Source: an uncultured Peptococcaceae bacterium (lineage in GTDB: Bacteria > Bacillota > Dehalobacteriia > UBA4068 > UBA4997). From it: DNA of 64,000 nt. The position numbers and the translations under genes were made by a program. Location of the stretch: assembly GCA_964569265.1 (NCBI GenBank), contig CAZMTO010000002.1:6102-70101 (forward strand), given 5' to 3'. The notes beneath the pieces are model-generated. The model did not search any database. It was given only the letters and a program-made list of their open reading frames with translations, and was not told the DNA's origin. Shown piece by piece: positions 5,683 to 24,593 of the stretch (the stretch's first letter is position 1; every line of letters begins with the position of its first letter).

Positions 5683-6020
5683 AACCGCAATAGCGGCACA
5701 TCTGCTGTGTCATATAATTTCTCGCTTGTCGGTGTACCATCTGTACGCCTCTGGCGACTCGAAATTCTATTCCTTGCATCTGTACCACTCTTGCAATTCT
5801 ATTAGGGTGGTGCAGGGCAATGTTGCGGTGTCATATAATTTCAATCAAGGCTGCCTGCCAAGGTATACAGGGCGGTGGGCGGGAATAGATAATCCTTTAT
5901 TCAGCCTTGATTGAAAAATTTTCAAACACTTGCGCCGCGGTGCGAAAATAATAATAAAAACGGAGTTAGGCTTTGCGGCATAGCTCCGTTTTTTTATAAA
6001 AATGCCGGTAATTTTGCAAA
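4930..6020 (+). repeat. Copy 1 of a ~1.1-kb dispersed direct repeat: helical-hairpin plus 3xSLH coding end, non-coding 3' module and terminator.
   Basis: Aligns base-for-base by eye with 23465-24593. The encoded C-termini are near-identical (DTKYTAADVKDLIDKIGTVTKDSK...RLLSK). The repeat continues through the stop codon to AAAAATGCCGGTAAT.TTGCAAA. Confidence 0.9.
5960..5996 (+). terminator. Rho-independent terminator of the first giant SLH gene.
   Basis: ACGGAGTTAGGC..GCATAGCTCCGT hairpin followed by T7. Copy 2 (24528-24564) carries compensatory/wobble changes. Confidence 0.8.
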
Positions 6021-6129: not shown

Positions 6130-6159
6130 TTGTTTTTTTTTTTTTTTTGATGTATCATT
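6130..6159 (+). promoter_or_regulatory. Candidate sigma-A promoter whose spacer is a T17 homopolymer.
   Basis: TTGTTT (6130-6135), an 18-nt spacer consisting almost entirely of the T run 6133-6149, then TATCAT (6154-6159). It lies ~35 nt upstream of riboswitch P1. Confidence 0.4.
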
Positions 6160-6192
6160 AGATTAAAGCACTAAAATCGACAAATTTCATAC

Positions 6193-6397
6193 GCAGTTAA
6201 GTGTCGCTATGGGTGGTAAAAGTCCATAGTGGTGAAAAGGGAAGTCCGGTGAAAATCCGGTACGGGGCCGCCGCTGTAACGGTTGCTTCATCAAGGGTGA
6301 AAGCCCGCCATTGCTCTGCTTGGGTGCAGGGTGAGAAGGTTAGATGAAGCTGTGTAGCTAATGCTATAACCTAAAGTCAGAAGACCTGCTTAACTGT
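6193..6397 (+). promoter_or_regulatory. Cobalamin (B12) riboswitch aptamer.
   Basis: P1 is CAGTTAAG (6194-6201) paired with CTTAACTG (6389-6396). Conserved core: GGGAAGTCCGGTGAAAATCCGGTACGGGGCCGCCGCTGTAACGG (6238-6282). 3' element: AGTCAGAAGACCTGC (6375-6389). These match the RF00174 consensus features as I remember them. Confidence 0.85.
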
Positions 6398-6457
6398 TGG
6401 GCTTGTACCTGCGCACAAGGGGCAAGCCGCAATTTTTTGTATACGGTAAAAACGGCA

Positions 6458-6491
6458 CCGCTATCAAGGTTCACTTGGTGGCGGCTTTTTT
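6458..6491 (+). terminator. Riboswitch expression-platform terminator (second of two tandem candidates).
   Basis: CCGCTATCAAG / CTTGGTGGCGG stem, GTTCA loop, then CTTTTTT. An earlier candidate, GGCTTG..CAAGCC plus T6, sits at ~6399-6440. Confidence 0.65.
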
Positions 6492-6562
6492 GTGCCAAAA
6501 ATCTGCCGTGGCTTTAGGGCGCGGCAGTTAAAATAGATACATAAAAATTATTAGGGGGAACA

Positions 6563-9500: not shown

Positions 9501-12500
9501 ATATTTTGGGTGGTAACCCGTTAGTAAAAGATGCTGTATATTTGCCGGAGCGTAACGCGGTAAGCAGCCAATCTACTGCTGCCCAGTGGGAATTTTTGCC
9601 GCTGCGTGACAGTGTTGTAAAAAAGGCACAGATAAAAAATTTAACGGCTAATACTGTTTTGCAGGAAAACACCATTGAATCGGCAGACCTTGGCGTTTGG
9701 TATAGCAAAAACGACGGTTATTGGCAGGGCGGTGTAAACACTATGCCGCTAAACCAAAGTCTGGCTGCCGTAAACGAAGGTGAACAGATAGAATTCAGCT
9801 TTGTTCGCCTGCCGGAATATTACGCTGCCGGCAAAATGGGAGAAAACAGCCCGGTAGGCACGGGCGCCCTGCTAAGCATTACGGCGGTGGTAGATGAAGC
9901 CAACCCCCAAACTCAGGATATAACCTATAACAGCAACGACAACACCCTTACTGTAAAGGCAGCAGACGAAAACTACATTGCGGCGGTTGCACTTTACAGC
10001 CGCGACGGTCAAAGGGTTATTGCCTATACCGGTGCCGATGAAACGCTGACTAAGGGGCAGGCGGGCAACTTTGTTATTGCTCTGCCCAACAAGATAGACG
10101 GTGAATATTTGTTGCAGGTTTATGACTACGCTATGAATACCGCCACCTACCGCATTGCTTTGTCTGATACTGCTATAAGCTACACCGGTGCTATGCTTGC
10201 CTATGATATGACCGATAAAGCGTGGGTGCAGGTAGACGAACAGTCGGCGCGGTTGGGTACTATTGCCAAAACTCACAGCTACACGGCGGCCACTGCTGTA
10301 GGCAGCACTGTTTATGCTATTGCCTATGGCACCGAGCTTTATGCGCTGGATATTTATCAGCCGCAAAACAGCACGCTGCTGGGCGATACCAATATCAATA
10401 TAGTAGATATGGCGTATAACGCGCAGGACGGCAGCCTGTACGGTGTAAGTGACAACAGCAAGCTGGTAAAAATAAATATGACAACCGGCAAGGCTATAGA
10501 GATTGGCACCCTGCCGATAAATACCAACACCTTAGCCTGCGATACCAAGGGTAATTTTTACAGCAACCTTTACGGCACCGGCAAGGTATACACCTACACG
10601 TTAGATGCTTTAGCTGCCGGTGATGCTGCTTATGATCTTAACGGTGACGGCGCTGTAAATATGGCCGATGTTCAGGCTATGCTGGATAACATTACCGGCA
10701 AAAAGGTGTCGGCGGCGGCTATTGATATAAACGGTGACGGTTTGACCGATACTTACGATGCGTATCTGCTGCTTGGCAAGCTGCCGGGTACGGTAAAACT
10801 GGTGGCCGATACCGGTATTGTCAGCAAATATATGCAGGCAATGGAAGCCGACCCCAACGATGATACCCTGTATTGGGCAAGCTACAGCACGCAGCCGGTA
10901 AACAGTACCGAAATTGGCTTTGCATATATGTTTAAAATAAACACGGCAACCGGCAAGTATGTAAATTGTGGTGATTTTGATAACCAGCTAAGCAGCCTGG
11001 TGATACTGGACAAGCACGCCGGCAGCGGTTATGCACCGCTTTATGACCTTGCGGATATTGCCAAGGCCGAGGCTGCCGTTGCAGACCTTGGCAGCAAAAC
11101 CTACTTAAATTCTATGGCCGAAGCTGCTGCTTTGGCGGTAAATATGGGCGTAGACAACAGCCTTAAAGACGACGCACCCAAAACCGTAACGGTGAGCATA
11201 ACAGCCGGGCAAAATATTACCAATGCTTTGTACAGGCTTAGCTACGGTGACGATATGCAGTTTGTGTCGGCGGCAAGCCCTGCCGATGTTGTAAGCATTA
11301 AGGCGGATAACAGTACATTGTGTCTGGCGGCGGCATCTGTTAACGGTGTTGCGGCCGGTGAGGCTATTGCCACCCTGACGTTTAGCACCAAAGCCTGTGC
11401 CGGTGATGTTGAGCTTGCCCGTTTAGAGGAAAACACCGCACATACCGATATTACCGAAGCTTTGATAAGTGATTCTCATATGTGGGGCAGTTGGCAGGTT
11501 ACCCAAGCGGCTACCTGTGTGGTCGATGGTGTAAAAACCCGCACCTGTGAGCTTTGCGGCAAGGCACAGACGGAAGCTATGGCTCGTGAAACCACCGCAC
11601 ATAGCTGGGGAGATTGGCAAACTGCGGTTGCCGCTACCCCAACCGGGCCCGGAGAAAAATACCGTGTGTGCGAAGAATGTGACCGACAGCAAACCGGTTA
11701 TATTTTGCCGGATACTATGTCGGCTGCCGAGCAGGACAGTGCCTTTAACCGTGTTTGGGCGCGCAAGCTTACCTTAAACTATGCGCTGATTACCGGCGCG
11801 GGCGTAAACAAGGTAGAGGCTCTGACGGCAGAAAACGATACCACGATGCGTTATTTGGTAACATTGGCGGCTGCAACCGGGGCAGATGCTCAGTTCCATA
11901 TACATATGGACCCGATTGAGCTGGTGGCCAGCGGTTTTGGTTCGGCGCTTAAAGCCAATAAAGTAGACCGTGTTACCTGGGATGATAATGATACTGAATA
12001 TGATGTGGTGCTTAGCAATGGGCTGGCGTGCCTTACGGTTTATTGCTACGCTAACGAAACCGAATGTACTCCGGTAGAAATATATTTTGCAATAGGTGAT
12101 GAAGGTGAAAATATCGGTAGCCTTAGCACTGCCGATGTGCCGGGCTTTGGTATAAATCATCTGGAAATTTGGGAAACAAGCGGTGTAAACAAGGTATATT
12201 ACATCAGCAATGATGACGAAACCGAAAATGAATGTTATATATGGCTGGATACAGCTACCCTCGATAATGCTGTTATGCAGATTAACCCGGTTCCGGACAG
12301 TGCTGCGGCAACTACCGTAAGCAGCCCCCTGTGGAGCAGCGGCCAAAAGCTTGGTGAAAACGGTATTCAACTGGCGCTTAAAAACGGTACTGCCAACGTT
12401 ACAGTTTCGGTAGACATAAATAGCTGGGGTAATGTAACCCACCGTAATTATAACCTGCACTTTAGCAATCACGCCAACCAGCCGCCTACGGTCCAAAACG

Positions 12501-12946
12501 CTGCCGGCAAGGCGCGGGTAACATTAGGCAACGCCTTTAGCCTTAACCTTGATACAGTGTTTGCCGACCCGGATGGTGATACCCTGAGTTACACCTATAC
12601 TGTAAACGGCGGTGAGGCGATGGCTGCCGCTGCGGACTTTAGCTTTGTGCCGCAGGCTACCGGCGATTATGTTTTGGTATTTACGGCTGACGACGGCCAA
12701 ACCGCCGGTAATAGCACCTATACGCTAACTTTAACGGTAGTTGATACGGTTATAGGTGATGTTAACAGCGACGGTGCGGTAAACGCCAAAGATGCCGCCG
12801 TGCTTAAACGCTATATTGCCAAGTGGGCAAACCTGACTATAGACCTGACAGCGGCTGACGTTAATGCCGACGGTGATATAAACGGTAAGGATACCGCTAC
12901 GCTTAAACGTTATATTGCCAAGTGGGCCGGTGTTAACCTTGGCTGA
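6563..12946 (+). CDS. Secreted S8 subtilase (cell-envelope proteinase type, PA-domain insert) with propeller-like, Cys-rich and cadherin-like modules and two dockerins.
   Basis: SD is GGGGGA. Signal peptide: MMKTKAWLKKCLCYVLMLAMILSAGWPTGVAMA. Triad motifs: VAIIDTGID, DHGSHVAGI, SGTSMATPQVAG. PA-like GKIAFVSRGD..TVIYNN. Dockerin EF-hand pairs at ~10621-10790 and ~12755-12943. Confidence 0.9.
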   Translation: MMKTKAWLKKCLCYVLMLAMILSAGWPTGVAMAADNVLGVSFTQVDDDLVQASLLPQADDAVVLASGDEYDPGELVRVSIVLEDAATIQAGYSINAVAENVRAMSYRQKLKAEQNQIKRAIEAALGDDLKVKWNLTLAANLMSAEVEVGQIDTIRAVDGVKDVVIEQQYQPMATAQTDDVARPQMTISTGMTGMQNAWQNGYTGAGSRVAIIDTGIDVDHQSFNGAALEYALAKNAAAKGVDEAEYLAGLNLLDAAKVDAVSSELNVTAINNQANGTNMYHSSKLPFAFNYVDQSYEYVDHNKDSQTDHGSHVAGIAAANRYIEKDGAMADAIDTVMVAGQAPDAQLLVMKVFGMNGGAYDSDYMAAIEDAIVLGADSINLSLGSSANGFSTAGVYQQIMESLTDAGAVVCMAAGNDGNFAENAYTAKSTGGSGLLYTDDVMYSHMGSPSSFTNSMSVASVDNQGIISDSFLSFGQGDDLFTVGYSETLYNDMKSMRSLDTAAEGGTEYEFVLVPGLGYREDYDGIDVSGKIAFVSRGDTPFYEKATIAVEQGAIATVIYNNVGGSMGMDMTDYHEAAPAVSITKDDAEKIKAMADELVSDIDEIYYGGKMRVNGTLSLIAGDKNSYTMSSFSSWGSTGDLALKPEITAPGGSIYSVNGSQTAPDGYKINSGTSMATPQVAGIAAAIGQYIREHKLTEKFGHSARQIAQSLLMATAIPLKDDNGNYYPLLQQGAGLANGENAINAGAYILMSEGASPSWQDGKVKAELGDDPERTGVYEFGFTLYNTENIAKTYQLAAELFTQAVAEYPSAPGLTTTAEYALKTTTPLDSSATFTANGTNIGSTLAVPANGSVTVQAKVSVTPKGKAWLEEHYQKGTYIQGFVFARPLANADGAISGSTLHIPLFAFYGNWTDPAMYDAVNWQNGSSTGTYSTPFISDASRTSYAVNYDVNSPLNTGSAGETSYIGTNHLVMNNANGVAYILGGNPLVKDAVYLPERNAVSSQSTAAQWEFLPLRDSVVKKAQIKNLTANTVLQENTIESADLGVWYSKNDGYWQGGVNTMPLNQSLAAVNEGEQIEFSFVRLPEYYAAGKMGENSPVGTGALLSITAVVDEANPQTQDITYNSNDNTLTVKAADENYIAAVALYSRDGQRVIAYTGADETLTKGQAGNFVIALPNKIDGEYLLQVYDYAMNTATYRIALSDTAISYTGAMLAYDMTDKAWVQVDEQSARLGTIAKTHSYTAATAVGSTVYAIAYGTELYALDIYQPQNSTLLGDTNINIVDMAYNAQDGSLYGVSDNSKLVKINMTTGKAIEIGTLPINTNTLACDTKGNFYSNLYGTGKVYTYTLDALAAGDAAYDLNGDGAVNMADVQAMLDNITGKKVSAAAIDINGDGLTDTYDAYLLLGKLPGTVKLVADTGIVSKYMQAMEADPNDDTLYWASYSTQPVNSTEIGFAYMFKINTATGKYVNCGDFDNQLSSLVILDKHAGSGYAPLYDLADIAKAEAAVADLGSKTYLNSMAEAAALAVNMGVDNSLKDDAPKTVTVSITAGQNITNALYRLSYGDDMQFVSAASPADVVSIKADNSTLCLAAASVNGVAAGEAIATLTFSTKACAGDVELARLEENTAHTDITEALISDSHMWGSWQVTQAATCVVDGVKTRTCELCGKAQTEAMARETTAHSWGDWQTAVAATPTGPGEKYRVCEECDRQQTGYILPDTMSAAEQDSAFNRVWARKLTLNYALITGAGVNKVEALTAENDTTMRYLVTLAAATGADAQFHIHMDPIELVASGFGSALKANKVDRVTWDDNDTEYDVVLSNGLACLTVYCYANETECTPVEIYFAIGDEGENIGSLSTADVPGFGINHLEIWETSGVNKVYYISNDDETENECYIWLDTATLDNAVMQINPVPDSAAATTVSSPLWSSGQKLGENGIQLALKNGTANVTVSVDINSWGNVTHRNYNLHFSNHANQPPTVQNAAGKARVTLGNAFSLNLDTVFADPDGDTLSYTYTVNGGEAMAAAADFSFVPQATGDYVLVFTADDGQTAGNSTYTLTLTVVDTVIGDVNSDGAVNAKDAAVLKRYIAKWANLTIDLTAADVNADGDINGKDTATLKRYIAKWAGVNLG

Positions 12947-12980
12947 TAATATTTAAGACAATATTTAAGGAGGAAGTGCA

Positions 12981-14192
12981 ATGATAAAATTAAAGCGTTT
13001 TTTGCCGTTTTTGCTGGCGGTGGCCCTTATGCTGGGGCTTATGGTGCCTGTAGCTTCGGCAGCCGATACTACCGGGCAAATAACGGTATCTGAGGCTGCG
13101 GGCAAACCCGGCGATACTGTTACAGTAACCGTAAATTTGGCTAAAAACCCCGGTATTATTGCCGCAGTTTTAGAAGTTGGCTATGACGAAAGCCGCTTAA
13201 AGCTTGTGGCCGTAAAAGACGGCGCCCTGCTGGCAGACAGTACTTTTTCGGACAGCTTGGCACGCAACCCCTATGTTTTAAGCTGGAACGATGCTTTGTC
13301 CAGCAGTAACATAACCACTACCGGTGTGCTGGCTACCCTTACTTTTGAAATTTTAAGTGATGCCAAGGCCGGCGAAGCCGCAGTAACAGTGGATTTTACC
13401 CCCGATAATCTGTTTGACTGGGAGTTAAACAACGTGCCGTTTACTGCAACTGACGGCGTGGTAAAGGTAACTGCCAAGGGCAGCAGCACGGTTAGCGGCG
13501 GCGGTGGCGGCGGTGCTGTTACTCCATCTAAGGATAATAATAAAGCCGATAATATCAAGGCCGATGAAAACGCCGACAGCAAAAAAGATGACGATCTGCC
13601 GGCGGGTAATTTGTATAAAAAATATACCGATTTAGCTGATGATGGCTGGTATCGCAGCGGTGTGGAATATATGCTGAACAACGGCTATATGAACGGTGTT
13701 TCGTCTACAGCGTTTGACCTTGACGGTGCCGTTACCCGCGCACAGTTTGTAACTATTTTGTACCGTTATGCCGGCAGCCCCGCAGTTAGCGGCAGCAGCC
13801 CCTTTGCCGATGTAAGCAGCAATGCCTGGTATGGCAAAGCAGTTATGTGGGGTGCTGCCAACGGCGTGGTAAAGGGTGTTAGCGCTAACCGCTTTGACCC
13901 CGATGCACCGCTTACCAGAGAACAACTTGCTACCCAGCTATACCGTTATGATAAAGCAGCGGCCCTGGCGGTTGACCACCTTAAAGCTTACAGCGATGCA
14001 GCCAAAATAAGCGACTATGCCAAGCAGGCTATGAACTGGGCTGTGGGCGGCAAAATCATCAACGGCATTACCGCTAATGTGCTTGCCCCGCAAAACACTG
14101 CCACCCGCGGGCAAACCGCCGTGCTGCTTAGCCGCTATTTTACGGCGGCTTCGGCGGTGCCGGTACCGCAAACCCCGGCAGAAAGTAAATAG
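12981..14192 (+). CDS. Anchoring scaffoldin-like protein: signal peptide, one cohesin, Gly/acidic linker, three SLH repeats.
   Basis: SD is AAGGAGGAAG. Cohesin-like sequence TGQITVSEAAGKPGDTVTVTVNLAKNPGIIAAVLEVGYDESRLKL...GVLATLTFEILSDAKAGEAAV (~13075-13470). SLH motifs: YTDLADDGWYRSGVEYM, FADVSSNAWYGKAVMWG, YSDAAKISDYAKQAMNWA. Confidence 0.85.
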   Translation: MIKLKRFLPFLLAVALMLGLMVPVASAADTTGQITVSEAAGKPGDTVTVTVNLAKNPGIIAAVLEVGYDESRLKLVAVKDGALLADSTFSDSLARNPYVLSWNDALSSSNITTTGVLATLTFEILSDAKAGEAAVTVDFTPDNLFDWELNNVPFTATDGVVKVTAKGSSTVSGGGGGGAVTPSKDNNKADNIKADENADSKKDDDLPAGNLYKKYTDLADDGWYRSGVEYMLNNGYMNGVSSTAFDLDGAVTRAQFVTILYRYAGSPAVSGSSPFADVSSNAWYGKAVMWGAANGVVKGVSANRFDPDAPLTREQLATQLYRYDKAAALAVDHLKAYSDAAKISDYAKQAMNWAVGGKIINGITANVLAPQNTATRGQTAVLLSRYFTAASAVPVPQTPAESK

Positions 14193-14327
14193 GTTTATAA
14201 GCTTAGTTTATAAGTATTGAAGATATATAATACCTTGGCAAGGGGGCGATGCGTTACAGATAATGTCGGAGTACGGATGTTTGTAAATTTTAAGTTGCAG
14301 CAAAAAAGATTAAGAAAGGAAATTGTT

Positions 14328-17300
14328 ATGTCTAAATATACCAAAAAGACAATAAGCTGGTTGCTTACATTGGCAATGATGTTTACTATGGTTATGCCGG
14401 CCGGTGCGGTAGAGATTGTGCCGCAGGACGGTGCAACAGTTGCTGAAGCTGCCGAACCCCTGGCAGATGGTGAAACCGAAGAAGGCAATACCGAAGAAGG
14501 CGCAGCCCAGCCCATTGCGGCCCCGGTTTGGCCCGAAGATATGAACCTTAAAACTACGTATTACAGCATTAGTTTTAATCAGCCGGCAGCTTGCCCCGAT
14601 ACAAACTATGAGCTGGTATACCGCATTGCAACATCGGCCGAAGCGCTGGAAAGCGAGACCGAATGGTCAACCTATGGCCAGACCGGCTTTGGTGATACCT
14701 TTGCGGATTACAAAGAGCGTGCAAGCATGGATCTGCTGGCGGCCGGCACCACCTATTATGTGCAGGCTGCATACCGCACCGGTGATTGGGGCGAATATGT
14801 GTATTCTGCCTACAGCGATGTAAAAGAGATGGCTACTGCATCTGCTCCCGAATCGGTTACGGTAGATTTTAGCATTGTTGCCGCTACCAAACCGTCGGCT
14901 ACCCCGGAAATTAGCGCTGACAGTGCTGACTACAAGGGCGCACAGTATTTTACCTGGTATGGCAACAGTAATATGGCCCTTGTAACCGGCACCAGTGTAC
15001 AGGGAGCAGCGCAAGCCGGCTTTGATACACTGGGTGTTAGTGTTACTGTGCCTAACTCTAAATTGAGCGTAACTATGCCCGATTATCTGGGTGGGCACGA
15101 GCTGGCACGTAAATCTTACGGTAACGACAGTAACTGGTATGTAACGGTTATGCGTGACGGTGTGGTTATTAAAGAAACCGACATCTTTGGTATTATTGAG
15201 CCGCACGATGGTGAAAAAGTTATTTTGCACTATGTATTTAACTACAAAGTTGAATTGATTTCTTGCAACAATGAAGGTATAAGCGGCAAATTTGTTGATG
15301 CACCGGCTATAAATACCGAAAACTACAAGGCTGCTGATGCTGTTAAAAAGCTTATTGAAAAAATTGACCCCTTAGGCGATATTACAGTAGCCAGCAAGCC
15401 GGCCATTGATGCTGCCGATGCTGCTTACAATGAATTGGCAGACGAAGCTAAGGCATATGTAAGCAACTACAGCGATTTAACCGCAGCCAAAGAAAGGCTT
15501 GCTAAGATTGAAAGCGGCGAAATTGTTACCCTTGCTGCTCCGCAGGTAACGGTTAAGGCCGAAGCTGCTACAGCCGACAGCGTAACTGTTAATATACCGG
15601 CTGCCGAAGCCGATGCTGCTGCGGTTATTAAAACCCGCTGTTCTTTAGACGGTGTAACCTGGACGGAATGGGCCGATGCAGCCGCCGGTGATATCACTAT
15701 CAGCAACCTGCAATCGGAAAAGTCTTACCGTGTTCAGGCATACTATAAAACGTCTGACAGCACTAAGTATGCAAATTCTGCCGTTGCCGAGGTAACTGCC
15801 GCTACTATTGCCTATGAGGTTTCTACGGTAAATGTCGGCACGCTCAGTGAACTGGTAAACGCCATAAAGGGCGCTGATACATCGGTGCAGACACTGATAA
15901 AGCTTACTGCCGATATTGAACTGCCCAGCGAGGGCGCACCGTATAACGCGGCTATAAGCCCGGCTGGTGCTAACATTATTTTGGATGGCGACGGCCACAA
16001 GGTAGGTTTGTATTCCGGCAACCAGTACAGTGCCGTGGTACATATCGGTGCAAATTCTACTGTTACCCTGCGCAATATTAAAATGGCACTGTTAAGAACC
16101 AACGATGAATGGACACTGCCTAATAATTCGTGGAGCAATTTAGTACGTTTTGTTGGTGATAACGGTGTGCTTAACGTTGAAAAAGATGCTGTTTTGTACA
16201 GCAACGGCAACGGCCGCGGTATTATTTATAACGGCGCACTTAGTTGGCGCCCCGCTGCTTTGGCAAACGCAACGGTAAATATTTACGGCGGTGTTATACA
16301 CAGCACCGGCGATAACGCCTACAGCCGCATTATCAACTTAAACGGCAAGGGTACCGTAAACATTATACCCAATGGTGATGTTATGCTGGAGGGCTTGATT
16401 GAAAACACCGAAGGCATTAACGTTAAACCCGGTACCGCAATTAAAAGCGGTGCAGCTTTAAGCAGCGATTTTGCGACTTACACACCCTTTACGACCGAAG
16501 AACTGGCAAACTACAATGCCGGTGCTGCCCTTACCTATGGGGCCGGTGTACGCTTTTTGGTAGGTGATACCCAGCTTGGCGATTTGACCGCGCCGGTGGT
16601 GTTGCCTGCTGCTGACGAAAACGCCGCTAATGCCGATGTTACCTATGTTATAAGCGATGATAAGGTAGTATTTACGGTTATAAACCGCGACGCTTTGGGC
16701 GTGCTGATGTTTAGACAGGATAACAACATATGGCGTCACAGTGCCGATGCCGACTACAGACAGTTTGTTGACGGCAACACCTTTACCTTTAGTGGTTTAA
16801 ACAAGGATACCGACTATACGTTCTATGTACAAACGGCATCCTTAACCCCGGCCTATAAGGATGCAATTACTACCCTTAATTTGCACACTACTTATACGGT
16901 TAACCAGTTGGATAAGGTTTCGGCAATTACATTAGAGGATAAAACCGCTACAAGCATTAAGCACAGTGTAGCTGCCTGCACGCAGGACAACACTGCTATT
17001 ACGCAGTTCCGTATGTCTGCCGACGGGCAAACCTGGGGCGATTGGCAGGACAGCCCGGAATTTACCGGCCTGCAGCCCTACACCGATTATCATTTTCAGG
17101 CACGTTACCATGCCGTAAGCAAGTATTGGTCAGATTCGGAGCCGAGCGAAACAGTTGTTGTACGCACCAAAGCAGCCGGGCTTACTGCTCCTGTGCTTGC
17201 CGAGGCTGCTTCTGCCAGGGCTAACACTGTTACCTTAACTGCACCGGCGGCTTCGGCAGAAGATACTACCGCTGTGGTATGGTACCGTATGTCTGCCGAC

Positions 17301-19415
17301 AACCAAACCTGGGGCGATTGGCAACAGAGTGCTGTGTTTAGCGGCTTAAAGCCCAACACCAGGTATTACTTCCAGGCCAAGTATGCTGCTGGCGCGGCTG
17401 CCTGGGTAGATTCGGCGGAAAGCAACACGGTTATGGCTACCACCGTTATTGACGAAAACGCACCGATGTTTACTGTTGGTCAGGTTAGTGGCCGCACCGG
17501 TGAAGAAGTTAAAGTAAATATCGAAATTAAGAACAACCCCGGTATTGCATCGGTTGCTATGGACGTAGGCTATGATGCAGATAAGCTGGAGTTGGTTGGC
17601 GCACTGGATACCAAGCTGTTGCCCAACGGCACCTTAAACAACGATGTTTCGTCTAACCCCTATACCCTGTACTGGGAAGATACCACCGCTGCTGAAAATA
17701 TGACGGCTAACGGCGTGTTGGCCACCCTTACCTTTAAGGTAAAGGCCGACTGTGCTGTTGGTGATGAAGCAGTTATTACTGTTAGCTACGACCCGGAAAA
17801 TGTATTTGACCTGAATTTGAACAATATAGAATTTGATACTGTTAACGGTGCAATTTTGGTGGTAGACCACAAGTGGAATGCACCCACCTACAAGTGGAGC
17901 AGTGATTATACCACCTGTACGGCTACCCGCACCTGCGGTGATGTTGGCTGCGAAGCTTTGAGTGAAACCGAAACTGTAGAAGCCACTGTAGAGCGCACCG
18001 AAGCAACCGAAACCGAAAACGGCAGTGCGGTTTATACCGCTGCATTTACCAACCCGGCATTTACTACCCAAACCTATACCGAAACTTTGTATGCCATTAA
18101 GGCCGAATTTGCGGTAGAAAAGGCAGAGGTTTGCCCCGGTACCACGGTAGATATTGATATCAATATTAACGAAAACCCCGGCATTACAACTGCCGAGCTT
18201 TATGTTGATTATAACGGCGATAAGCTGGAGCTGATTAACGTAAAAGATGCCGGCCTGCTTAACGGTGCGGTATTTAGCGACAGCTATGCCAAAAAACCCT
18301 ATTATCTTTCCTGGAACGATGCACTTGCCAAAGAAAACAACACCGCCAACGGCACTGTTGCTACCCTTACCTTTAAAGTAAAGGAAGCCTGTGTAATCGG
18401 TGAGAGCGCACAGGTTTCGGTAACCTTTGGTAATGTTTACGATTGGCAGATGCAGGATGTTATCTTCCGCGCGGTAAACGGCGGCGTAACTGTAACCGAC
18501 CATAAATGGGGCGATGCCGCTTACGTTTGGAGTGCTGACCACACGGTTTGCACTGCCCAAAGCGTATGTGCCTGCGGAGAAAAACTGACCGAAAAGGCTA
18601 CGGCCGAAATGACTGCGACAGCATCTACCTGTAGCGTTGCCGGCAACAAAACCTACACGGCCAAGTTTAACAACAGCACCTTTGCCGAACAGACTTATGT
18701 TGAAGAGCTGCCTCTGGCTGCACATAATTACGTAGTAGGCGGCAGTGCCGACGGTGCTGCACTGATTTATACCTGTAGCGAATGTGGCAATGTTGTTAGC
18801 AAAAATGCTACTGAAAATACCGCAATTTTGGCAGTATCGGATGCTGCTGGCAGTGTTGATGAAGAATTGCAGGTAGTGATTTCGGCCAAAAACAACCCCG
18901 GCATTATTGCCGCTACCTTGCAGCTTGGTTATGATGAAGAAGTTTTGCAGTTGGTAAAGGCAGAAAACCTGAGCAGCCTTAAGAGCCTGCGGGTAGACGG
19001 CCATACACTGTATTTGGGCGGCACTAACGAAACCGCCGATGCCATTGCCGACGGTGCCATTATTAAGCTTACCTTTAAGGCTTTGGCAGCCTGCGATGGC
19101 GGCACGGCAGTAAGCCTTAGCTACAAACCTGCCGATATTTATAACTATGATATGGAAGCCGTAGAATTTGCTGTTGATAACGGTGTTGTTGTTGCCAGCA
19201 TTTATTTGCTGGGTGATGTAAACGACGACGGCAGCGTTGATATTAAGGACGTTACCGTTTTGCGCCGTTATCTGGCAGAATGGGAAAATTATGCCGACAT
19301 TGTTAAACTGGCAGCCGACGTAGATGTTAACGGCGAAATTAACATTAAGGATGCTACTATCCTGCGCCGTTACCTGGCCGGTTGGGACGGTGTAGAATTA
19401 GGCAAGGCTTCGTAA
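14328..19415 (+). CDS. Adaptor scaffoldin-like giant protein: Fn3-like repeats, divergent DUF4430-like domain, beta-helix-like region, three cohesins separated by Cys-rich modules, C-terminal dockerin.
   Basis: I chose the start at MSKYTKKTISWLLTLAMMFTMVMPAGA (signal peptide, SD AAAGGAA) rather than the ORF-track 14217. Cohesins at ~17461-17860, 18108-18495 and 18826-19200 (NNPGIASVAMDVGYDADKLEL.., ENPGITTAELYVDYNGDKLEL.., NNPGIIAATLQLGYDEEVLQL..). Dockerin: GDVNDDGSVDIKDVTVLRRYLAEW..VDVNGEINIKDATILRRYLAGW. Confidence 0.88.
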   Translation: MSKYTKKTISWLLTLAMMFTMVMPAGAVEIVPQDGATVAEAAEPLADGETEEGNTEEGAAQPIAAPVWPEDMNLKTTYYSISFNQPAACPDTNYELVYRIATSAEALESETEWSTYGQTGFGDTFADYKERASMDLLAAGTTYYVQAAYRTGDWGEYVYSAYSDVKEMATASAPESVTVDFSIVAATKPSATPEISADSADYKGAQYFTWYGNSNMALVTGTSVQGAAQAGFDTLGVSVTVPNSKLSVTMPDYLGGHELARKSYGNDSNWYVTVMRDGVVIKETDIFGIIEPHDGEKVILHYVFNYKVELISCNNEGISGKFVDAPAINTENYKAADAVKKLIEKIDPLGDITVASKPAIDAADAAYNELADEAKAYVSNYSDLTAAKERLAKIESGEIVTLAAPQVTVKAEAATADSVTVNIPAAEADAAAVIKTRCSLDGVTWTEWADAAAGDITISNLQSEKSYRVQAYYKTSDSTKYANSAVAEVTAATIAYEVSTVNVGTLSELVNAIKGADTSVQTLIKLTADIELPSEGAPYNAAISPAGANIILDGDGHKVGLYSGNQYSAVVHIGANSTVTLRNIKMALLRTNDEWTLPNNSWSNLVRFVGDNGVLNVEKDAVLYSNGNGRGIIYNGALSWRPAALANATVNIYGGVIHSTGDNAYSRIINLNGKGTVNIIPNGDVMLEGLIENTEGINVKPGTAIKSGAALSSDFATYTPFTTEELANYNAGAALTYGAGVRFLVGDTQLGDLTAPVVLPAADENAANADVTYVISDDKVVFTVINRDALGVLMFRQDNNIWRHSADADYRQFVDGNTFTFSGLNKDTDYTFYVQTASLTPAYKDAITTLNLHTTYTVNQLDKVSAITLEDKTATSIKHSVAACTQDNTAITQFRMSADGQTWGDWQDSPEFTGLQPYTDYHFQARYHAVSKYWSDSEPSETVVVRTKAAGLTAPVLAEAASARANTVTLTAPAASAEDTTAVVWYRMSADNQTWGDWQQSAVFSGLKPNTRYYFQAKYAAGAAAWVDSAESNTVMATTVIDENAPMFTVGQVSGRTGEEVKVNIEIKNNPGIASVAMDVGYDADKLELVGALDTKLLPNGTLNNDVSSNPYTLYWEDTTAAENMTANGVLATLTFKVKADCAVGDEAVITVSYDPENVFDLNLNNIEFDTVNGAILVVDHKWNAPTYKWSSDYTTCTATRTCGDVGCEALSETETVEATVERTEATETENGSAVYTAAFTNPAFTTQTYTETLYAIKAEFAVEKAEVCPGTTVDIDININENPGITTAELYVDYNGDKLELINVKDAGLLNGAVFSDSYAKKPYYLSWNDALAKENNTANGTVATLTFKVKEACVIGESAQVSVTFGNVYDWQMQDVIFRAVNGGVTVTDHKWGDAAYVWSADHTVCTAQSVCACGEKLTEKATAEMTATASTCSVAGNKTYTAKFNNSTFAEQTYVEELPLAAHNYVVGGSADGAALIYTCSECGNVVSKNATENTAILAVSDAAGSVDEELQVVISAKNNPGIIAATLQLGYDEEVLQLVKAENLSSLKSLRVDGHTLYLGGTNETADAIADGAIIKLTFKALAACDGGTAVSLSYKPADIYNYDMEAVEFAVDNGVVVASIYLLGDVNDDGSVDIKDVTVLRRYLAEWENYADIVKLAADVDVNGEINIKDATILRRYLAGWDGVELGKAS

Positions 19416-19541
19416 GAAGCGCAAAGCTTTATCCACTGCGGGCACGGGCAATAGTCTGTGCCCGCCTTGTGGGTTATTTTGATAATTGCGGCAGGGTGCC
19501 ATCGGGTACGTTTGCCTGCACCCATTTTAAGGAGAATTTTT

Positions 19542-21599
19542 ATGAGATCGTACAGTAAAAGCCTTGTGTTGCTGGTGTTTACGCTGTGTCTGCTGTTTGG
19601 TCAGGCGTATGCGGCATTGGCAGCCGATGCTGTGGCAATTTCAATAAACCAAACGCAAAATTTGGCGGTGGGCTATGCCAAGCCGCTGGTATTAACAGCG
19701 GCCCCGGCAGGTGCTGCCCTGCCTGCGGTGGAATGGAAGTCGAGCAACGAGGCAGTGGCTACCGTTGACCAAAACGGTGTGGTTACCGGTGTTAAGGCCG
19801 GCAAGGCCACCATTACGGCAACTGCCGGGTCTAATGCCGATATTACGGCTTCGGTAGATTTGGTGGTGCGTAATTCGTATCGCTATAAAATAGGCTGGGG
19901 CGGCAACTTTAATCAGGCTGATAACAACCAGACTACCACCGCTGCCCTGCCGATAAACCCCAACAAGGTACAAAAAGTCTGGCAGGCTCACGTAGGCAAC
20001 AGCACCGTAGCTATTGTGGATGATTATGTGTACACCTATAACGGTACCAGCCTTAACGGCGAAAACAACGGCGGTGTGCTTTATAAAATTGACAAAAACA
20101 CCGGCAATGTGGTAAACAGCCTGCAGTGCAGCGGCAGTTGTAACCTTTATTACAGCTATACTATTTATGGCGGCGGCCTGCTTTATGTAAGCTGTGTGGG
20201 TTCGGTAATGGCTTTTGATTTGGATTCTTTTGCGCTGCTGTGGACGGCAGAAACCGACCCGGCAGTAAATTATCCCACCATACAGTATGTTAACAACTGT
20301 GTGGTTACTAACGGTTATGTGTTAGACGCTGTTACCGGTGCTAAAAAAGCTACCCTGCCCGGTGGGTATTCATATTCCAGCGGGGTAGAAAAAAACGGCC
20401 TGTTTTATATTGCGGCGGCAGACGGCAAAATTTACGCTTTTAGCACTGCCGATTGGAGTGTTAAATATTCGCTTAAATTTGGCGACGGCAACGGCGGCAA
20501 CCAGCCGGGTGTAGCCTTTGCCGGCAACCGCCTTTATTGGGGTTCGGTCGGCAGCGGCAATTTGTATTCGGTGCAGATAAACGATACTACCGGTGCTTTT
20601 GCCGAAGATACGTTAAAAACCGTGGCCTGCGGGGTAAGCGGCCCCTGTGTGCCGGTAATTGCCAACGGCAGAATATATTTGGCCGGCACGCATAACGGCA
20701 ACGGTGCAGTAGCAGTGGTAAGGGCTGCCGATATGAGCTTGCAGTATGTGGCTTACGGTGCAGTAGAAAAAATACAAAGTACACCTATAGTACGCATTGT
20801 AACTGCCGATGGCCCGGTGGTATCGGCGCTGGCGGCAGAGCCTGCGGCTGTTGGTGTGGCCGAAGGTAATTATGTGTTTATGCAGGATTACGGTTCGGCA
20901 GCATCACCCAGCCGCATATTATTGCTGGCGGATAATGCAGCAGCCACTGCCGGCAGCCTTAATAAGCTGTTTACGGTAGACAACGAAAACTGGGCATACG
21001 AGCAAATTGCCTGCGACAAAGAGGGTGCTTTGTATGTTACCAATGATTCGGGTTTTTTGATAAAGTATGCAGAAGCAACGGTAAGTGTACCGACTTTTGA
21101 CACTGACCTTTCGGCTGCTGAGGTGAACTACGGTTTGGGTGCCGATGCTGCCGAATTGAGGGTAGTGGCAAGTGTAACCGATGAGGGCAGTATAAGCTAC
21201 CAATGGCAGCAAAAGTCGGCTAACGGCGTGTGGACAGATATTGCCAATGCGACAAATGCTGCTTATACACCGGCCACCAATGCCGAAGGTACCACCTATT
21301 ATCGCTGCGTGGTAACCAACACACTTAACGGTCAGGCAGCAACGGCTACATCTAAAGCGGCCAAAATAGTGGTTGTTGCCGGCACGGTTAGCCTTACCTA
21401 CGGTGATGTTAATAACGACGGTAATATAAACGGCAAAGACGTAGCCCTGCTTAAACGCTATATTGTAAACCCTACTGATACAGATATAAATGTGGCGGCT
21501 GCCGATGTTGATGCCAACGGCAGTGTTACCGGCAAAGATGTTGCTTTGCTTAAACGCTATGTGGCCAAATGGCAGATTACCCTTGGCCCTGCGGCTTAG
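19542..21599 (+). CDS. Secreted Big_2 + PQQ-like beta-propeller + Ig-like + dockerin protein.
   Basis: Start at MRSYSKSLVLLVFTLCLLFGQAYA with SD AAGGAGA. Big_2: WKSSNEAVATVDQNGVVTGVKAGKATITA. Propeller repeats (~19960-21070) are paralogous to 2140-3260. Ig-like ISYQWQ..YYRC (~21081-21380). Dockerin: GDVNNDGNINGKDVALLKRYI..ADVDANGSVTGKDVALLKRYVAKW. Confidence 0.88.
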   Translation: MRSYSKSLVLLVFTLCLLFGQAYAALAADAVAISINQTQNLAVGYAKPLVLTAAPAGAALPAVEWKSSNEAVATVDQNGVVTGVKAGKATITATAGSNADITASVDLVVRNSYRYKIGWGGNFNQADNNQTTTAALPINPNKVQKVWQAHVGNSTVAIVDDYVYTYNGTSLNGENNGGVLYKIDKNTGNVVNSLQCSGSCNLYYSYTIYGGGLLYVSCVGSVMAFDLDSFALLWTAETDPAVNYPTIQYVNNCVVTNGYVLDAVTGAKKATLPGGYSYSSGVEKNGLFYIAAADGKIYAFSTADWSVKYSLKFGDGNGGNQPGVAFAGNRLYWGSVGSGNLYSVQINDTTGAFAEDTLKTVACGVSGPCVPVIANGRIYLAGTHNGNGAVAVVRAADMSLQYVAYGAVEKIQSTPIVRIVTADGPVVSALAAEPAAVGVAEGNYVFMQDYGSAASPSRILLLADNAAATAGSLNKLFTVDNENWAYEQIACDKEGALYVTNDSGFLIKYAEATVSVPTFDTDLSAAEVNYGLGADAAELRVVASVTDEGSISYQWQQKSANGVWTDIANATNAAYTPATNAEGTTYYRCVVTNTLNGQAATATSKAAKIVVVAGTVSLTYGDVNNDGNINGKDVALLKRYIVNPTDTDINVAAADVDANGSVTGKDVALLKRYVAKWQITLGPAA

Positions 21600-21643
21600 G
21601 CAGCAGCTTGTACAGTGGTAAAAAACACTTGGAGAAATAGTTT

Positions 21644-24217
21644 ATGAAGAAAAACAGATTATTAGGATTGTTGGCGGCTATGGTGGTTTTGCTGTGCCTG
21701 CTTTGTAATGCGGCATTGGCGGCGGTGCAGCCTGCAGCGGTAATATCGTCGGTGAGCGGCCAGCCCGGTGACGAGGTTAAGGTGACGGTAAGCCTGCAAA
21801 ACAACCCCGGTATTATTGCGGCCGAGCTTAAATTGGCATATGACAATGATAAGCTGGAGCTTAAAAAAGCTGAAACCGGCAACCTGTTAACGGATTGTGT
21901 GTTTGGTGATAATTTAGGCAAAACCCCGTACTATATGGCGTGGGATGAGGCCTGGCGGCGTGAAAATATGTCGGCAGACGGCGTTTTGACTACCCTTACC
22001 TTTAAGATAAAGGCAAGCTGCAAGGCAGGTGATACGGCGGCTTTAAGCATAACATCATTAAAGGCTCACAATACCCTGCTTAAAGACGTTAACTTTACGA
22101 CTGCGCCCAGCAGTGTAAGTGTTGGCGGGCACACCTGGGGCAAGGCTGCATACACGTGGTCGGCTGACCATATGAGCTGCACGGCAGGCTGTTATTGTAC
22201 GGATGCCGATTGTAATTATTTTGCCAACGAAACCGTAAGCGCGGTGGTAAGCACTACGCCTGCCACCTGTACGGCAGACGGGGTTAAGGTGTATACTGCC
22301 AAATTTAGCAGCGCGGTCTTTGTTGAGCAGACCTTTACCGAGGTGCTTAAAGCTACGGGGCATAAATTTGCGGTGGTTGGCAGCACTGATGACAGCCTTA
22401 CATACCGTTGCAGCGGCTGCGGTGCCGAAAAAACCGAAAGTATCGCTAAGGGCAGCCCTACATTGTTGGTTGCCGATGCTGCCGGTAAAGTTGGCGACGA
22501 AGTGAGTGTAGCTGTAAGTCTTAAAGATAATCCGGGCATTGTAAGCCTGGCGTTTAACCTTAATTATGACCACAGTAAGCTGGCCCTGCAAAAGGTGGCC
22601 GATGCTGGGCTTTTGCCCAACGGCAGCTTTAGCAGTGATTTGTCGGCTGACCCATATGTGTTATATTGGGAGGATACGACAGCAACTGCAAACCGCACAG
22701 AAAACGGAACGCTGGCTATGTTAACCTTTAAAGTTTTATCGGCGGCGGCCGGCAATGATGTTGATGTAAAGCTGAGTTATGATCCTGAAAATATTTTTGA
22801 TTATAATTTGGTTAATGTGCCTTTTGCTATTGATAATGGCGTGATTACCGTGGCAGCAGCCGAAGGTGGTACCGGTGGCGGCACGGGCGGTGGTATCGGT
22901 GGTGGCACAGGCGGTGGCACAGGTGGCGGCACGATAGATGTCAGCTTTCGGCTGATAGGTTGTACGCCGGCAACTGACGGTGACGTTGATTTTAGCGAGG
23001 GCGTACCGGCCGGCCTGCACGGAGCCGAATATCAGACGTGGATAAAAACCACTGCGTATACGCTGGATAAAGGCTCTACCGCTAAAGACCTGTTTGAATT
23101 GGCACTGAAAAATAACGGCCTTAGCTGGGACGGCAGCAGCAGTTGGGTTACCTCGATAACGGCACCGGCAGTTTTGGGCGGCTACGAGCTGGCGCAGCAG
23201 GACAACGGTGCGAATTCCGGCTGGATGTATACGGTAAACGGCAAGCACCCCAACAAGGCATTTAGTGAATATGTGCTGAAAAATAACGATAAGGTTATTT
23301 GGCATTACATTAACGACTACCAATACGAACAGGAAGATTGGGTAGGCGGTTCGCCGCACGGCAACAAGGATACCTTTAATTTATGGTTGCAGGCTAAGGA
23401 CACCAACCCGACAGGTACAACTGCCGGTGGTGGCGCTGCCGGTGGCGGCGGCGGTGCAGCCGTTGACACCAAGTATACCGCGGCTGACGTAAAAGACCTG
23501 ATTGACAAGATTGGCACCGTTACCAAGGACAGCAAAAAGGCCATTGAAAAAGCCCGTGAGGCTTATGATTCGCTGACGGCTGCCCAGAAGAAGAACGTTA
23601 CCAATTATGACAAACTTACCGCCGCTGAAAAAGCTTACACCGAGCTTACCGGCGAAAAGATAGACACTACCAAACTGCCGTTTATCGATGTAGCAAAGGG
23701 TAGCTGGTACTATGACGCGATTAAGGCAATGTACGACAAGGGCTTGATGAACGGTGAAAGTGCTACCAAGTTTATGCCGAACAACAAGCTTAGCCGTGCA
23801 ATGTTGGTAACTATTCTGTACCGTATGCAGAATGAACCGAGCATTAGCACAACTGCACTGTTCAACGACGTTGCTAATGGCCAGTGGTACACCAATGCCG
23901 TTGCTTGGGCAAATGCCAACAACGTTGTTAACGGCGTAGGCGAGGGTAAGTTTGCACCTAATGATAGCGTAACCCGCCAGGAAATGGCAGCAATGCTGTA
24001 CCGTTACGCTAAGGCCACCGGTATGGACACTACCGCAACCGCTTCTCTCAGTAACTTTAAGGATAGCGCCAAGGTAGCCGATTGGGCAACCGATGCTATG
24101 AAGTGGGCAGTTGGCAGCGGCCTGATGAAGGGCAACGAGGACGGCACTATCAACCCGATGGGCACTGCAACACGTGCAGAAGTAGCAACTGTAATTGTTC
24201 GCTTGCTTAGCAAGTAG
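21644..24217 (+). CDS. Anchoring scaffoldin-like protein: two cohesins, Cys-rich module, Gly linker, canonical DUF4430 (transcobalamin-like) domain, helical hairpin, three SLH.
   Basis: Signal peptide: MKKNRLLGLLAAMVVLLCLLCNAALA. Cohesins at ~21742-22120 and ~22460-22855. DUF4430 signature: IDVSFRLIG...GANSGWMYTVNGKHPNKAFSEYVLKNNDKVIWHYINDY (22934-23320). The SLH end is near-identical to the end of the first gene. Confidence 0.9.
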   Translation: MKKNRLLGLLAAMVVLLCLLCNAALAAVQPAAVISSVSGQPGDEVKVTVSLQNNPGIIAAELKLAYDNDKLELKKAETGNLLTDCVFGDNLGKTPYYMAWDEAWRRENMSADGVLTTLTFKIKASCKAGDTAALSITSLKAHNTLLKDVNFTTAPSSVSVGGHTWGKAAYTWSADHMSCTAGCYCTDADCNYFANETVSAVVSTTPATCTADGVKVYTAKFSSAVFVEQTFTEVLKATGHKFAVVGSTDDSLTYRCSGCGAEKTESIAKGSPTLLVADAAGKVGDEVSVAVSLKDNPGIVSLAFNLNYDHSKLALQKVADAGLLPNGSFSSDLSADPYVLYWEDTTATANRTENGTLAMLTFKVLSAAAGNDVDVKLSYDPENIFDYNLVNVPFAIDNGVITVAAAEGGTGGGTGGGIGGGTGGGTGGGTIDVSFRLIGCTPATDGDVDFSEGVPAGLHGAEYQTWIKTTAYTLDKGSTAKDLFELALKNNGLSWDGSSSWVTSITAPAVLGGYELAQQDNGANSGWMYTVNGKHPNKAFSEYVLKNNDKVIWHYINDYQYEQEDWVGGSPHGNKDTFNLWLQAKDTNPTGTTAGGGAAGGGGGAAVDTKYTAADVKDLIDKIGTVTKDSKKAIEKAREAYDSLTAAQKKNVTNYDKLTAAEKAYTELTGEKIDTTKLPFIDVAKGSWYYDAIKAMYDKGLMNGESATKFMPNNKLSRAMLVTILYRMQNEPSISTTALFNDVANGQWYTNAVAWANANNVVNGVGEGKFAPNDSVTRQEMAAMLYRYAKATGMDTTATASLSNFKDSAKVADWATDAMKWAVGSGLMKGNEDGTINPMGTATRAEVATVIVRLLSK

Positions 24218-24593
24218 AATTGCAATAGCGCCAGAAGGGACAACTGCACACCATCTGCTGTGTCGAGCTTGCATTTTTCTCGCGACGCGCACTATCTGTA
24301 CGCCTCTGGCGACTCGAAATTCTATTCCTTGCATCTGTACCACTCTTGCAATTCTATTAGGGTGGTGCAGGGCAGGGCTGCGGTGTCATATAATTTCAAT
24401 CAAGGTTGCCTGCCAAGGTATACAGGGTGGTGGGCGGGAATAGATAATCCTTTATTCAGCTTTGATTGAAAAAACTTACAAACACTGCGCCGCAGGGCAA
24501 GGCTGCTGTGTGAAAATGACAAAAAAAACGGAGTTAGGCTTTGCGGCTTGGCTCCGTTTTTTTTGTGTAAAAATGCCGGTAATATTGCAAAAA
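23465..24593 (+). repeat. Copy 2 of the ~1.1-kb dispersed direct repeat.
   Basis: See 4930-6020. An 81-nt stretch (24294-24374) is identical to 5739-5819. Confidence 0.9.
24528..24564 (+). terminator. Rho-independent terminator closing the giant-protein operon.
   Basis: ACGGAGTTAGGC / GCTTGGCTCCGT 12-bp stem followed by T8. Confidence 0.8.

Follow-up and report, generated by a model that had tools for sequence, protein, structure and literature searches.

Predicted corrinoid-binding, transcobalamin-like domain on a two-cohesin, SLH-anchored scaffoldin in a cobalamin riboswitch-headed gene cluster of an uncultured Peptococcaceae bacterium

Anchoring scaffoldins of cellulosomes combine cohesins with S-layer homology (SLH) repeats, as in SdbA, OlpB and Orf2p of Clostridium thermocellum. 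Heme relays of Gram-positive bacteria use wall-anchored NEAT proteins (the Isd system; the SLH-anchored BslK of Bacillus anthracis). In the animal carriers of vitamin B12, transcobalamin (TC), intrinsic factor (IF) and haptocorrin (HC), most of the affinity is given by a fused alpha/alpha-toroid. Even in the absence of the alpha-domain, the isolated beta-domain of TC binds both cobalamin and cobinamide (PMC5599065). Bulky corrinoid-contact residues of the TC beta-domain are Tyr362, Trp359 and Arg357 (PMC4350170). Burroughs et al. (2007), who defined the SLBB superfamily, predicted that extracellular transcobalamin-like proteins of bacteria are B12 scavengers; an alpha-toroid and CbiO/CbiQ neighbours are frequent among these proteins, and riboswitches, SLH, cohesin/dockerin and protease are not reported there (PMC1796856). 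Extracellular cobamide relay is represented by BtuG, BtuH and BtuJ of Bacteroides, and extracellular capture in Gram-positive bacteria is called 'entirely uncharacterized' in a 2026 review (PMC13616437). A literature search found no paper joining cobalamin riboswitches with dockerin, cohesin, SLH or transcobalamin in Firmicutes. The subject of the present description is a 64,000-nt stretch of DNA (the window; positions are counted from its first letter) from an uncultured Peptococcaceae bacterium. Its plus-strand open reading frame (ORF) 21644–24217 encodes a scaffoldin of 857 aa (the target) with a DUF4430 domain. This module, aa 431–563, is predicted with fair probability to be a corrinoid-binding domain, homologous to the TC beta-domain and part of a surface assembly made at low B12.

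Modules of the target follow one another in the order signal peptide, cohesin 1, Cys-rich module, cohesin 2, Gly-rich linker, DUF4430, Gly/Thr linker, helical hairpin, three SLH repeats. Pfam matches are Cohesin (two copies, 2e-30), DUF4430 (PF14478) and SLH (three copies, 8e-34). Positions are as follows.

21725–22135, plus strand, cohesin 1 (Pfam)
22130–22447, plus strand, Cys-rich module, aa 163–268 (sequence)
22451–22861, plus strand, cohesin 2 (Pfam)
aa 404–430, Gly-rich linker
22934–23332, plus strand, transcobalamin-beta-like (DUF4430/SLBB) domain, aa 431–563 (PF14478, AlphaFold, Foldseek)
23459–23653, plus strand, helical hairpin, aa 606–670
23660–24214, plus strand, three SLH repeats, aa 673–857

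Two cohesins and three SLH repeats, together with three dockerin proteins encoded in the same cluster, identify the target as a cohesin–dockerin anchoring scaffoldin. An SLH-anchored two-cohesin scaffoldin with DUF4430, located between a Gly-rich linker and the hairpin plus SLH, had been proposed in the first-pass annotation of this DNA; the peptide quoted there is the exact translation of nucleotides 22934–23320. The Pfam matches agree with this composition, and the flanking modules listed above with the location. Features shared with the cellulosome anchors are the signal peptide, the cohesins, the C-terminal triple SLH, and the joint encoding of anchor, dockerin-bearing adaptor and dockerin cargo. 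Different from them are the cargo (S8 protease and beta-propeller), the cobalamin riboswitch ahead of the genes and the domain of predicted ligand-binding type on the scaffoldin.

The PF14478 match covers aa 477–556 and profile positions 1–71 of 72 (E 1.7e-13, 51.2 bits, cut-off 23.8). The folded domain exceeds it, at about aa 431–563, owing to an N-terminal beta-hairpin extension. The domain is a well-conserved 140-aa subtype. In an exhaustive search, 3014 cluster representatives match it at E ≤ 1e-3; at E ≤ 1e-30 there are 114. Mean column identity is 56% in an alignment of 40 relatives, in which R6, G9, Y33, W36, A77-P78, N91-G92, S95-G96-W97-M98, H105, H124-Y125 and E132 are invariant. The AlphaFold model built on the family alignment has a predicted local distance difference test score (pLDDT) of 93.1 and a predicted template modelling score (pTM) of 0.86. 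It is a beta-grasp with a clade-specific beta-hairpin insert, superposable on the beta-domain of TC, IF and HC. The 19 best Foldseek matches in the PDB (E 6e-5 to 1.3e-3) are the beta-domains of TC, IF and HC and the DUF4430 structure 3u7z of R. gnavus. After the 19th match E jumps from 1e-3 to 0.065, and the next matches are generic beta-grasp folds. The isolated human TC beta-domain structures 5no0 and 5np4 are matched with Foldseek probability 1.0 and TM 0.56–0.58 (target-normalised). Two of the checks proposed in the first-pass annotation, a PF14478 profile search and comparison of a predicted structure with the TC beta-domain, were thus positive: the bit score lies above the gathering score, and matches at E ≤ 1.3e-3 are to these corrinoid-carrier domains and 3u7z only.

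Alignment by hhalign with the human TC beta sequence, recovered from PDB alignments, is of low confidence (E 7e-4, probability 26%). In it, Y/W71 of the family falls on TC Tyr362, and the invariant S-G-W-M-Y is aligned with TC F376-W377-Q-L379. The fold, the Pfam family, the aromatic residue at Tyr362 and the G-W at F376-W377 are common to the target and the carrier beta-domains. The target differs from them in sequence (about 14% identity), in the N-terminal beta-hairpin extension (about 40 aa), in an 11-aa insert, in the lack of a fused toroid, and in being embedded in a bacterial scaffoldin.

A cobalamin riboswitch stands at the head of the gene cluster that ends with the target. It is the strongest evidence, and the first-pass annotation does not mention it. 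Conserved core and B12 box are both present; the aptamer lies 156 nt ahead of the first gene. An RF00174 aptamer upstream on the same strand, combined with an expression platform, marks the cluster as a candidate member of the B12 regulon. Five co-directional genes follow, separated by gaps of 34–135 nt.

6133–6148, plus strand, poly-T tract of 16 T, flanked by a −35-like TTGTTT and a −10-like TATCAT, just 5' of the riboswitch (sequence)
6183–6407, plus strand, cobalamin riboswitch aptamer RF00174 (Rfam, 70.4 bits, gathering score 31.5, model positions 1–189 of 189)
6458–6494, plus strand, intrinsic terminator, likely the expression platform (11-pair stem, then CTTTTTTGTG)
6563–12946, plus strand, secreted subtilase: S8, PA, Fn3-like modules and C-terminal dockerin (Peptidase_S8 5e-40, PA 4e-17, Dockerin_1 1e-20)
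12981–14192, plus strand, small anchoring scaffoldin: one cohesin and three SLH (Cohesin 1e-17, SLH 1e-25)
14328–19415, plus strand, adaptor scaffoldin: FN3-like modules, divergent DUF4430, hairpin, three cohesins, dockerin (Pfam Cohesin, three copies, and Dockerin)
14856–15272, plus strand, divergent DUF4430 of the adaptor
15312–15512, plus strand, helical hairpin of the adaptor
19203–19382, plus strand, dockerin of the adaptor
19416–19541, plus strand, structured intergenic spacer with two GC-rich hairpins, between adaptor and propeller genes (minimum free energy, MFE, −53.8 kcal/mol, z −4.2)
19542–21599, plus strand, protein with Big_2, eight-bladed PQQ/BamB-like beta-propeller, Ig-like domain and dockerin (Pfam, AlphaFold)
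21644–24217, plus strand, target scaffoldin (Pfam)
24218–24570, plus strand, structured 3' untranslated region (UTR) ending in a long terminator hairpin, the cluster end (sequence; MFE z −5.2)

All six cohesins and all three dockerins of the window fall in this cluster. The cohesins are 30–47% identical to one another, the dockerins 44–53%. Dockerins are borne by the S8 protease, the adaptor and the beta-propeller protein. No glycoside hydrolase or carbohydrate-binding module family was found by Pfam in the cluster proteins, and the cluster does not class as a cellulosome. Catalytic motifs of the subtilase (D213/H309/S674) are intact in the sequence. Adaptor aa 214–431 matches the DUF4430 and hairpin of the target (BLASTP E 2e-14; 46.8 bits with the family profile), and the N-terminal part of the adaptor is without relatives in the GTDB genomes searched. 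The propeller model (AlphaFold pLDDT 86) has BamB, YxaL, tetrathionate hydrolase and designed eight-bladed propellers as top Foldseek matches. A BtuG-like propeller was considered and rejected, as BtuG is missing from the 50 best Foldseek matches.

An importer is encoded 25 kb downstream of the scaffoldin cluster, together with a membrane-tethered DUF4430 protein and next to corrinoid genes.

47853–48899, minus strand, cbiB, adenosylcobinamide-phosphate synthase, flanking the importer cluster (TIGR00380 209.6, cut-off 165.9)
49083–49973, plus strand, membrane-tethered DUF4430 protein: N-terminal transmembrane helix, Pro/Glu/Thr-rich leash of about 140 aa, DUF4430 (PF14478 9e-18; sequence)
49967–53525, plus strand, importer of energy-coupling factor (ECF) type: T component, fused A-A' ATPase, S component (ABC_tran, two copies; ECF-ribofla_trS 1e-14; TIGR04520 above cut-off)
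54556–55596, minus strand, probable cobD, threonine-phosphate decarboxylase (best NCBIfam TIGR01140, 278 bits, just below the cut-off of 290.6)

A minus-strand ORF of 306 aa (53600–54520) separates the ECF cluster from the probable cobD. The likeness of the target domain to the membrane-tethered protein, already pointed out in the first-pass annotation, is confirmed by BLASTP (E 4e-12, 29% identity over 92 aa). The leader of the ECF/DUF4430 cluster is 183 nt long (48900–49082) and is shared with the divergent cbiB. Counterpart importer genes in other Clostridia sit inside riboswitch-controlled operons.

The subtype was followed in other genomes. With the domain profile, 80 loci were found in the GTDB species genomes, every one in a metagenome-assembled genome or an isolate of Clostridia type. 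The target domain is 45–57% identical to members of the subtype in other Clostridia. Among the 149 best relatives, SLH follows DUF4430 after 14–405 aa (median 169) in 117; the hairpin is present in 42, cohesins in 4, dockerins in 3. Many relatives are giant proteins ordered DUF4430, alpha/alpha-toroid, DUF4430, SLH, which amounts to a full transcobalamin-like alpha and beta pair. Pfam matches on 29 relatives are Ig-like, FIVAR, Prenyltrans/SQHop and PQQ-propeller domains, and no enzymes. Fifteen of the 80 loci were scanned with Rfam at the gathering score. Cobalamin riboswitches are present in 12 of them; in 291 kb, each of the 24 hits shares its strand with the DUF4430 gene, and the opposite strand has none. 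Seven of these loci had been chosen purely by list order, and six of the seven have the riboswitch. The usual operon behind the riboswitch comprises, after a small gene in some cases, DUF4430(-alpha-DUF4430)-SLH, alpha-toroid-SLH, small DUF4430, CbiQ-like T and ABC-ABC-S. Beta-domain proteins without the alpha-toroid are also riboswitch-controlled (L007, L029, L048). In L003, riboswitch-controlled DUF4430-SLH genes are followed by the same ECF gene order as in the window.

In comparison with these clostridial DUF4430-SLH operons, the domain subtype, the SLH-adjacent position, the small DUF4430 protein with ECF importer and the cobalamin riboswitch are the same. Different are the single giant DUF4430-alpha-toroid-DUF4430-SLH protein typical of the operons and the lone beta-domain of the target, placed behind two cohesins. 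Here the protease, the propeller and the second beta-domain would be recruited via dockerins, and the ECF genes lie 25 kb away.

The cohesin–dockerin version is the rarer one. Only about eight loci with cohesin and DUF4430 were found, and few proteins are related to the target over its full length (P0001, P0002, L055). The propeller-dockerin protein has about 50 full-length orthologues. In L166/L167, L170 and L171 the gene order is S8-PA-dockerin, (cohesin-SLH), adaptor, propeller-dockerin, cohesin-DUF4430(-SLH); in GCA_016648615.1 the propeller is followed by cohesin-DUF4430-SLH. Synteny of the cluster thus extends to at least five other lineages (L166, L168, L170, L171, GCA_016648615.1) and is partial in L055. 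Because this order is common to the contigs of the propeller orthologues, the S8 protease, the propeller and the DUF4430-bearing scaffoldins are taken, by gene content and order, as a conserved set. In L168 and L171 the genes that follow encode an SLH protein and a small DUF4430 protein; the SLH protein of L168 bears Prenyltrans/alpha-toroid Pfam matches, and in L171 the ECF importer comes next. In L001 and L002 an alpha-toroid protein immediately follows the scaffoldin. No riboswitch was found inside the orthologous loci within 10-kb flanks, which end 1–2 kb short of the DNA upstream of the S8 orthologues.

Several results weigh against corrinoid binding by the domain or against its control by B12. 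At sequence level a PDB match is lacking: HMMER against the PDB gave no TC, IF, HC or 3u7z match with the family profile, the target domain or the ECF-linked domain, and the hhalign probability is 26%. The domain is connected with solved structures by Pfam, Foldseek and the weak hhalign match only. No alpha/alpha-toroid was found in any of the six frames of the window at E ≤ 10 with a profile from the alpha-domains of 13 relatives, which detects the domain in 48 of the 80 genome loci. A hidden toroid partner in the window is rejected on this ground, and no complete transcobalamin-like carrier (alpha-toroid plus beta-domain) is present there. The missing alpha-domain favours a structural role, in which DUF4430 would be the wall-proximal part of a generic SLH cassette, a spacer or wall-polymer binder, belonging to the scaffold only and having no corrinoid role. 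The position of the domain 14–405 aa ahead of SLH in 117 of the 149 best relatives looks like that of a piece in a fixed C-terminal cassette, and other SLBB clades (ComEA, polysaccharide export) have been proposed as polysaccharide binders (PMC1796856). A generic anchor, however, would not predict the family-wide link with a same-strand cobalamin riboswitch and an ECF importer, and the N-terminal parts of the relatives are binder-type domains, not diverse enzymes. The SLH protein encoded at 49–5682 has hairpin and SLH without DUF4430; therefore the cassette does not require the domain. Invariant polar and aromatic residues also align with the corrinoid contacts of TC, in the low-confidence hhalign alignment. 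A purely structural role is considered distinctly unlikely.

No Rfam riboswitch was found ahead of the ECF cluster of the window, and the S component there matches generic riboflavin/folate-type models only. In Lactobacillus sakei the operon lsa1836–1840, encoding an ECF transporter and proteins like the alpha- and beta-domains of TC, is tied experimentally to heme uptake (bioRxiv 10.1101/864751). The S-component matches and the L. sakei operon favour another ligand: the domain would bind heme, another tetrapyrrole or a corrinoid precursor, and the assembly would serve iron or tetrapyrrole acquisition, not B12. Burroughs et al. left the ligand open, as 'B12 or its precursors' or another metabolite (PMC1796856). 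Against this, a cobalamin riboswitch heads the cluster and most relatives, the ECF cluster adjoins cbiB and is near the probable cobD, and every close structural match is a corrinoid carrier. A ligand of this other kind is judged quite improbable.

Control of the target by the riboswitch is likewise weakened. A strong hairpin with a U-rich stretch (19416–19541) lies between the adaptor gene and the two genes for propeller and target, and a promoter-like site is present at 14235–14264; therefore riboswitch control of the target itself is unproven, and its co-transcription with the riboswitch past 19416–19541, as read from the sequence, is uncertain. In L168 the S8 gene is parted from the downstream block by two opposite-strand genes (1473–4637), and no riboswitch was detected between. 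In a redundant human-gut metagenome set a riboswitch lies within the 10-kb flank in 3 of 7 loci only; the association is frequent, not universal, or the leaders lie beyond the flank. The U-tailed hairpin, whose position is kept in four orthologous clusters, and the separate S8 gene of L168 would fit a riboswitch that governs mainly the S8 protease, perhaps also the first scaffoldins, and serves peptide or methionine supply when B12-dependent metabolism fails; propeller and target would then form a separate, B12-unrelated unit. Cobalamin riboswitches do control B12-independent bypass functions, for example metE. The spacers of L170 and L171, however, are merely 73–83 nt long and the L170 hairpin is without a U-tract, so that an mRNA-stability or attenuating hairpin fits better than a unit boundary. 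Dockerins and cohesins of the window all lie in one cluster, so the parts need each other, and the DUF4430 subtype of the target is riboswitch-linked elsewhere. Division into two units of different function is regarded as unlikely.

Corrinoid capture is the preferred reading. That the anchor is itself a corrinoid-binding station, as the first-pass annotation had inferred, is not proven and appears to be the best-supported interpretation, because the riboswitch heads the cluster, 12 of 15 family loci are riboswitch-linked and the isolated TC beta-domain binds cobalamin and cobinamide. The scaffold protein is probably part of a B12-capturing surface machine. At low B12 the riboswitch would permit transcription of the cluster. 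The two SLH anchors would hold the adaptor, the S8 protease and the propeller protein at the wall through predicted cohesin–dockerin pairs. Corrinoids, free or released from carrier proteins, would be caught by the beta-domains (the divergent copy of the adaptor and the copy of the SLH anchor) and handed to the membrane-tethered DUF4430 protein (49083–49973) and its ECF transporter. Freeing of corrinoids from carrier proteins by the docked protease would be the most speculative step. The overall logic would resemble, by analogy, a ligand relay across the Gram-positive wall. In a wider version, put forward tentatively and with the balance tilted against it, 6183–24570 would be a cellulosome-style machine re-purposed for vitamin capture, made in B12 scarcity only and perhaps poly-T-switched; the docked subtilase would digest corrinoid carriers (host haptocorrin, IF, TC, dietary or microbial binders), and the corrinoid would pass from the adaptor to the SLH anchor, to the membrane-tethered DUF4430 protein and to the ECF transporter.

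The proposed logic shares with the BtuG/BtuH/BtuJ relay several surface B12 binders under B12 control, passage of the cobamide to a membrane transporter and the ability to rival host carriers. The folds are unrelated; anchoring there is by lipoproteins in an outer membrane and import by TonB/BtuB, whereas SLH and cohesin–dockerin pairs on a Gram-positive wall and an ECF importer would serve here. With the NEAT relays it would share a tetrapyrrole-binding domain on a wall anchor (SLH in BslK) and a series of binders leading from the outer wall inwards to a membrane transporter. It differs from them in fold (SLBB, not NEAT) and proposed ligand (corrinoid, not heme); the sole NCBIfam match to that family is in the SLH repeats.

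New here are a predicted cohesin–dockerin assembly, B12-riboswitch-headed and including a docked protease, and a large, riboswitch-linked, SLH-anchored transcobalamin-like family; a system of this kind was predicted earlier and is experimentally untouched. The wider assembly and the riboswitch-linked family are of more interest than the single domain. If the proposal is true, this would be the first described extracellular cobamide capture in Gram-positive bacteria and the first nutritional, non-polysaccharide role of a cohesin–dockerin complex under riboswitch control, and the uses of cohesin and dockerin would be widened past polysaccharide breakdown. Gut and anaerobic communities are shaped by competition for B12 and corrinoids, and extracellular capture has been worked out so far only in Gram-negative Bacteroides. 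Release of B12 from host carriers by the protease, if it occurs, would bear on host–microbe competition for the vitamin. The locus and its relatives are testable candidates: a compact 140-aa domain, a riboswitch-controlled operon, six cohesins and three dockerins. For annotation, a riboswitch-linked, SLH-anchored transcobalamin-like subfamily can be recognised among proteins now labelled 'DUF4430' or 'S-layer homology domain-containing protein'.

The Cys-rich module of the target is without any Pfam family match and is kept in every cohesin-DUF4430 scaffoldin examined. Its motif is H-x-W-x(4-6)-Y-x-W-x(2-8)-C-T-A-x(2-6)-C ... Y-T-A-x-F ... F-x-E-Q. The module also occurs between the cohesins of the adaptor (aa ~1218–1295 and ~1429–1530) and in L055, P0001 and P0002.

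In four other assemblies of the same species the poly-T tract has 14, 17, 14 and 16 T, and the remaining leader of about 570 nt differs at few positions. The promoter spacer is 17 nt with 16 T and 15 nt with 14 T. A phase-variable promoter could explain the variation, as could homopolymer noise in the assemblies.

A GC-rich hairpin of the 12-bp class occurs right after the adaptor gene also in L166 (9829–9975), L168 (9803–9950), L170 (9928–10000) and L171 (9918–10000). Sequences differ, position is constant; z is −4.2 in the window and −4.5, −3.0, −5.5 and −1.3 in L166, L168, L170 and L171, respectively. Possible roles are those of an attenuator within the operon, of a partial terminator, or of an mRNA-stability element setting subunit ratios.

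The gene at 49–5682 encodes an SLH-anchored protein of 1877 aa with Ig-like, cadherin-like and propeller-like domains and the same hairpin, without DUF4430. It ends just before the riboswitch promoter and seems to lie outside the B12-controlled unit. The last ~580 nt of this gene and of the target gene, with ~330 nt past the stops, are 92% identical (5100–6020 and 23635–24580); locally, conservation is even higher in the non-coding part of this stretch than in the coding part. The identity could stem from gene conversion in the recent past or from a 3' UTR element with a function of its own. Remaining genes of the window are housekeeping genes (elongation factor G paralogue, mfd, pth, dnaG, rpoD). 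The GC content of the window is even, about 50%, without sign of an island.

As a stand-in for Rfam, nhmmer gave an upstream match in 34 of 58 loci and was rejected, since it disagreed with Rfam both ways (L094, 65 bits, unconfirmed; L131, 22 bits, confirmed at 67 bits). Rfam-confirmed riboswitch counts alone are used as evidence.

C-terminal dockerin replaces SLH after the DUF4430 subtype in L011 (11041–12504), L030 (6716–10627), L127 (3480–7370) and L152 (7205–10642). In these predicted proteins the B12-binder-like domain would be cargo and not part of the scaffold.

Two cobalamin riboswitches, in tandem or close together, lie 5' of DUF4430-SLH genes in L003, L033, L017, L024 and L005, and up to four per 20 kb are found in L017. 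Such multi-riboswitch loci are B12-regulon hot spots. In L007, from an uncultured Sporobacter, a cobalamin riboswitch (4536–4752, 79.7 bits) is followed after about 560 nt by a cyclic di-GMP-II riboswitch (5317–5401, 54.6 bits, barely above gathering). Their joint position ahead of the DUF4430-SLH gene points to a surface B12 binder under dual control.

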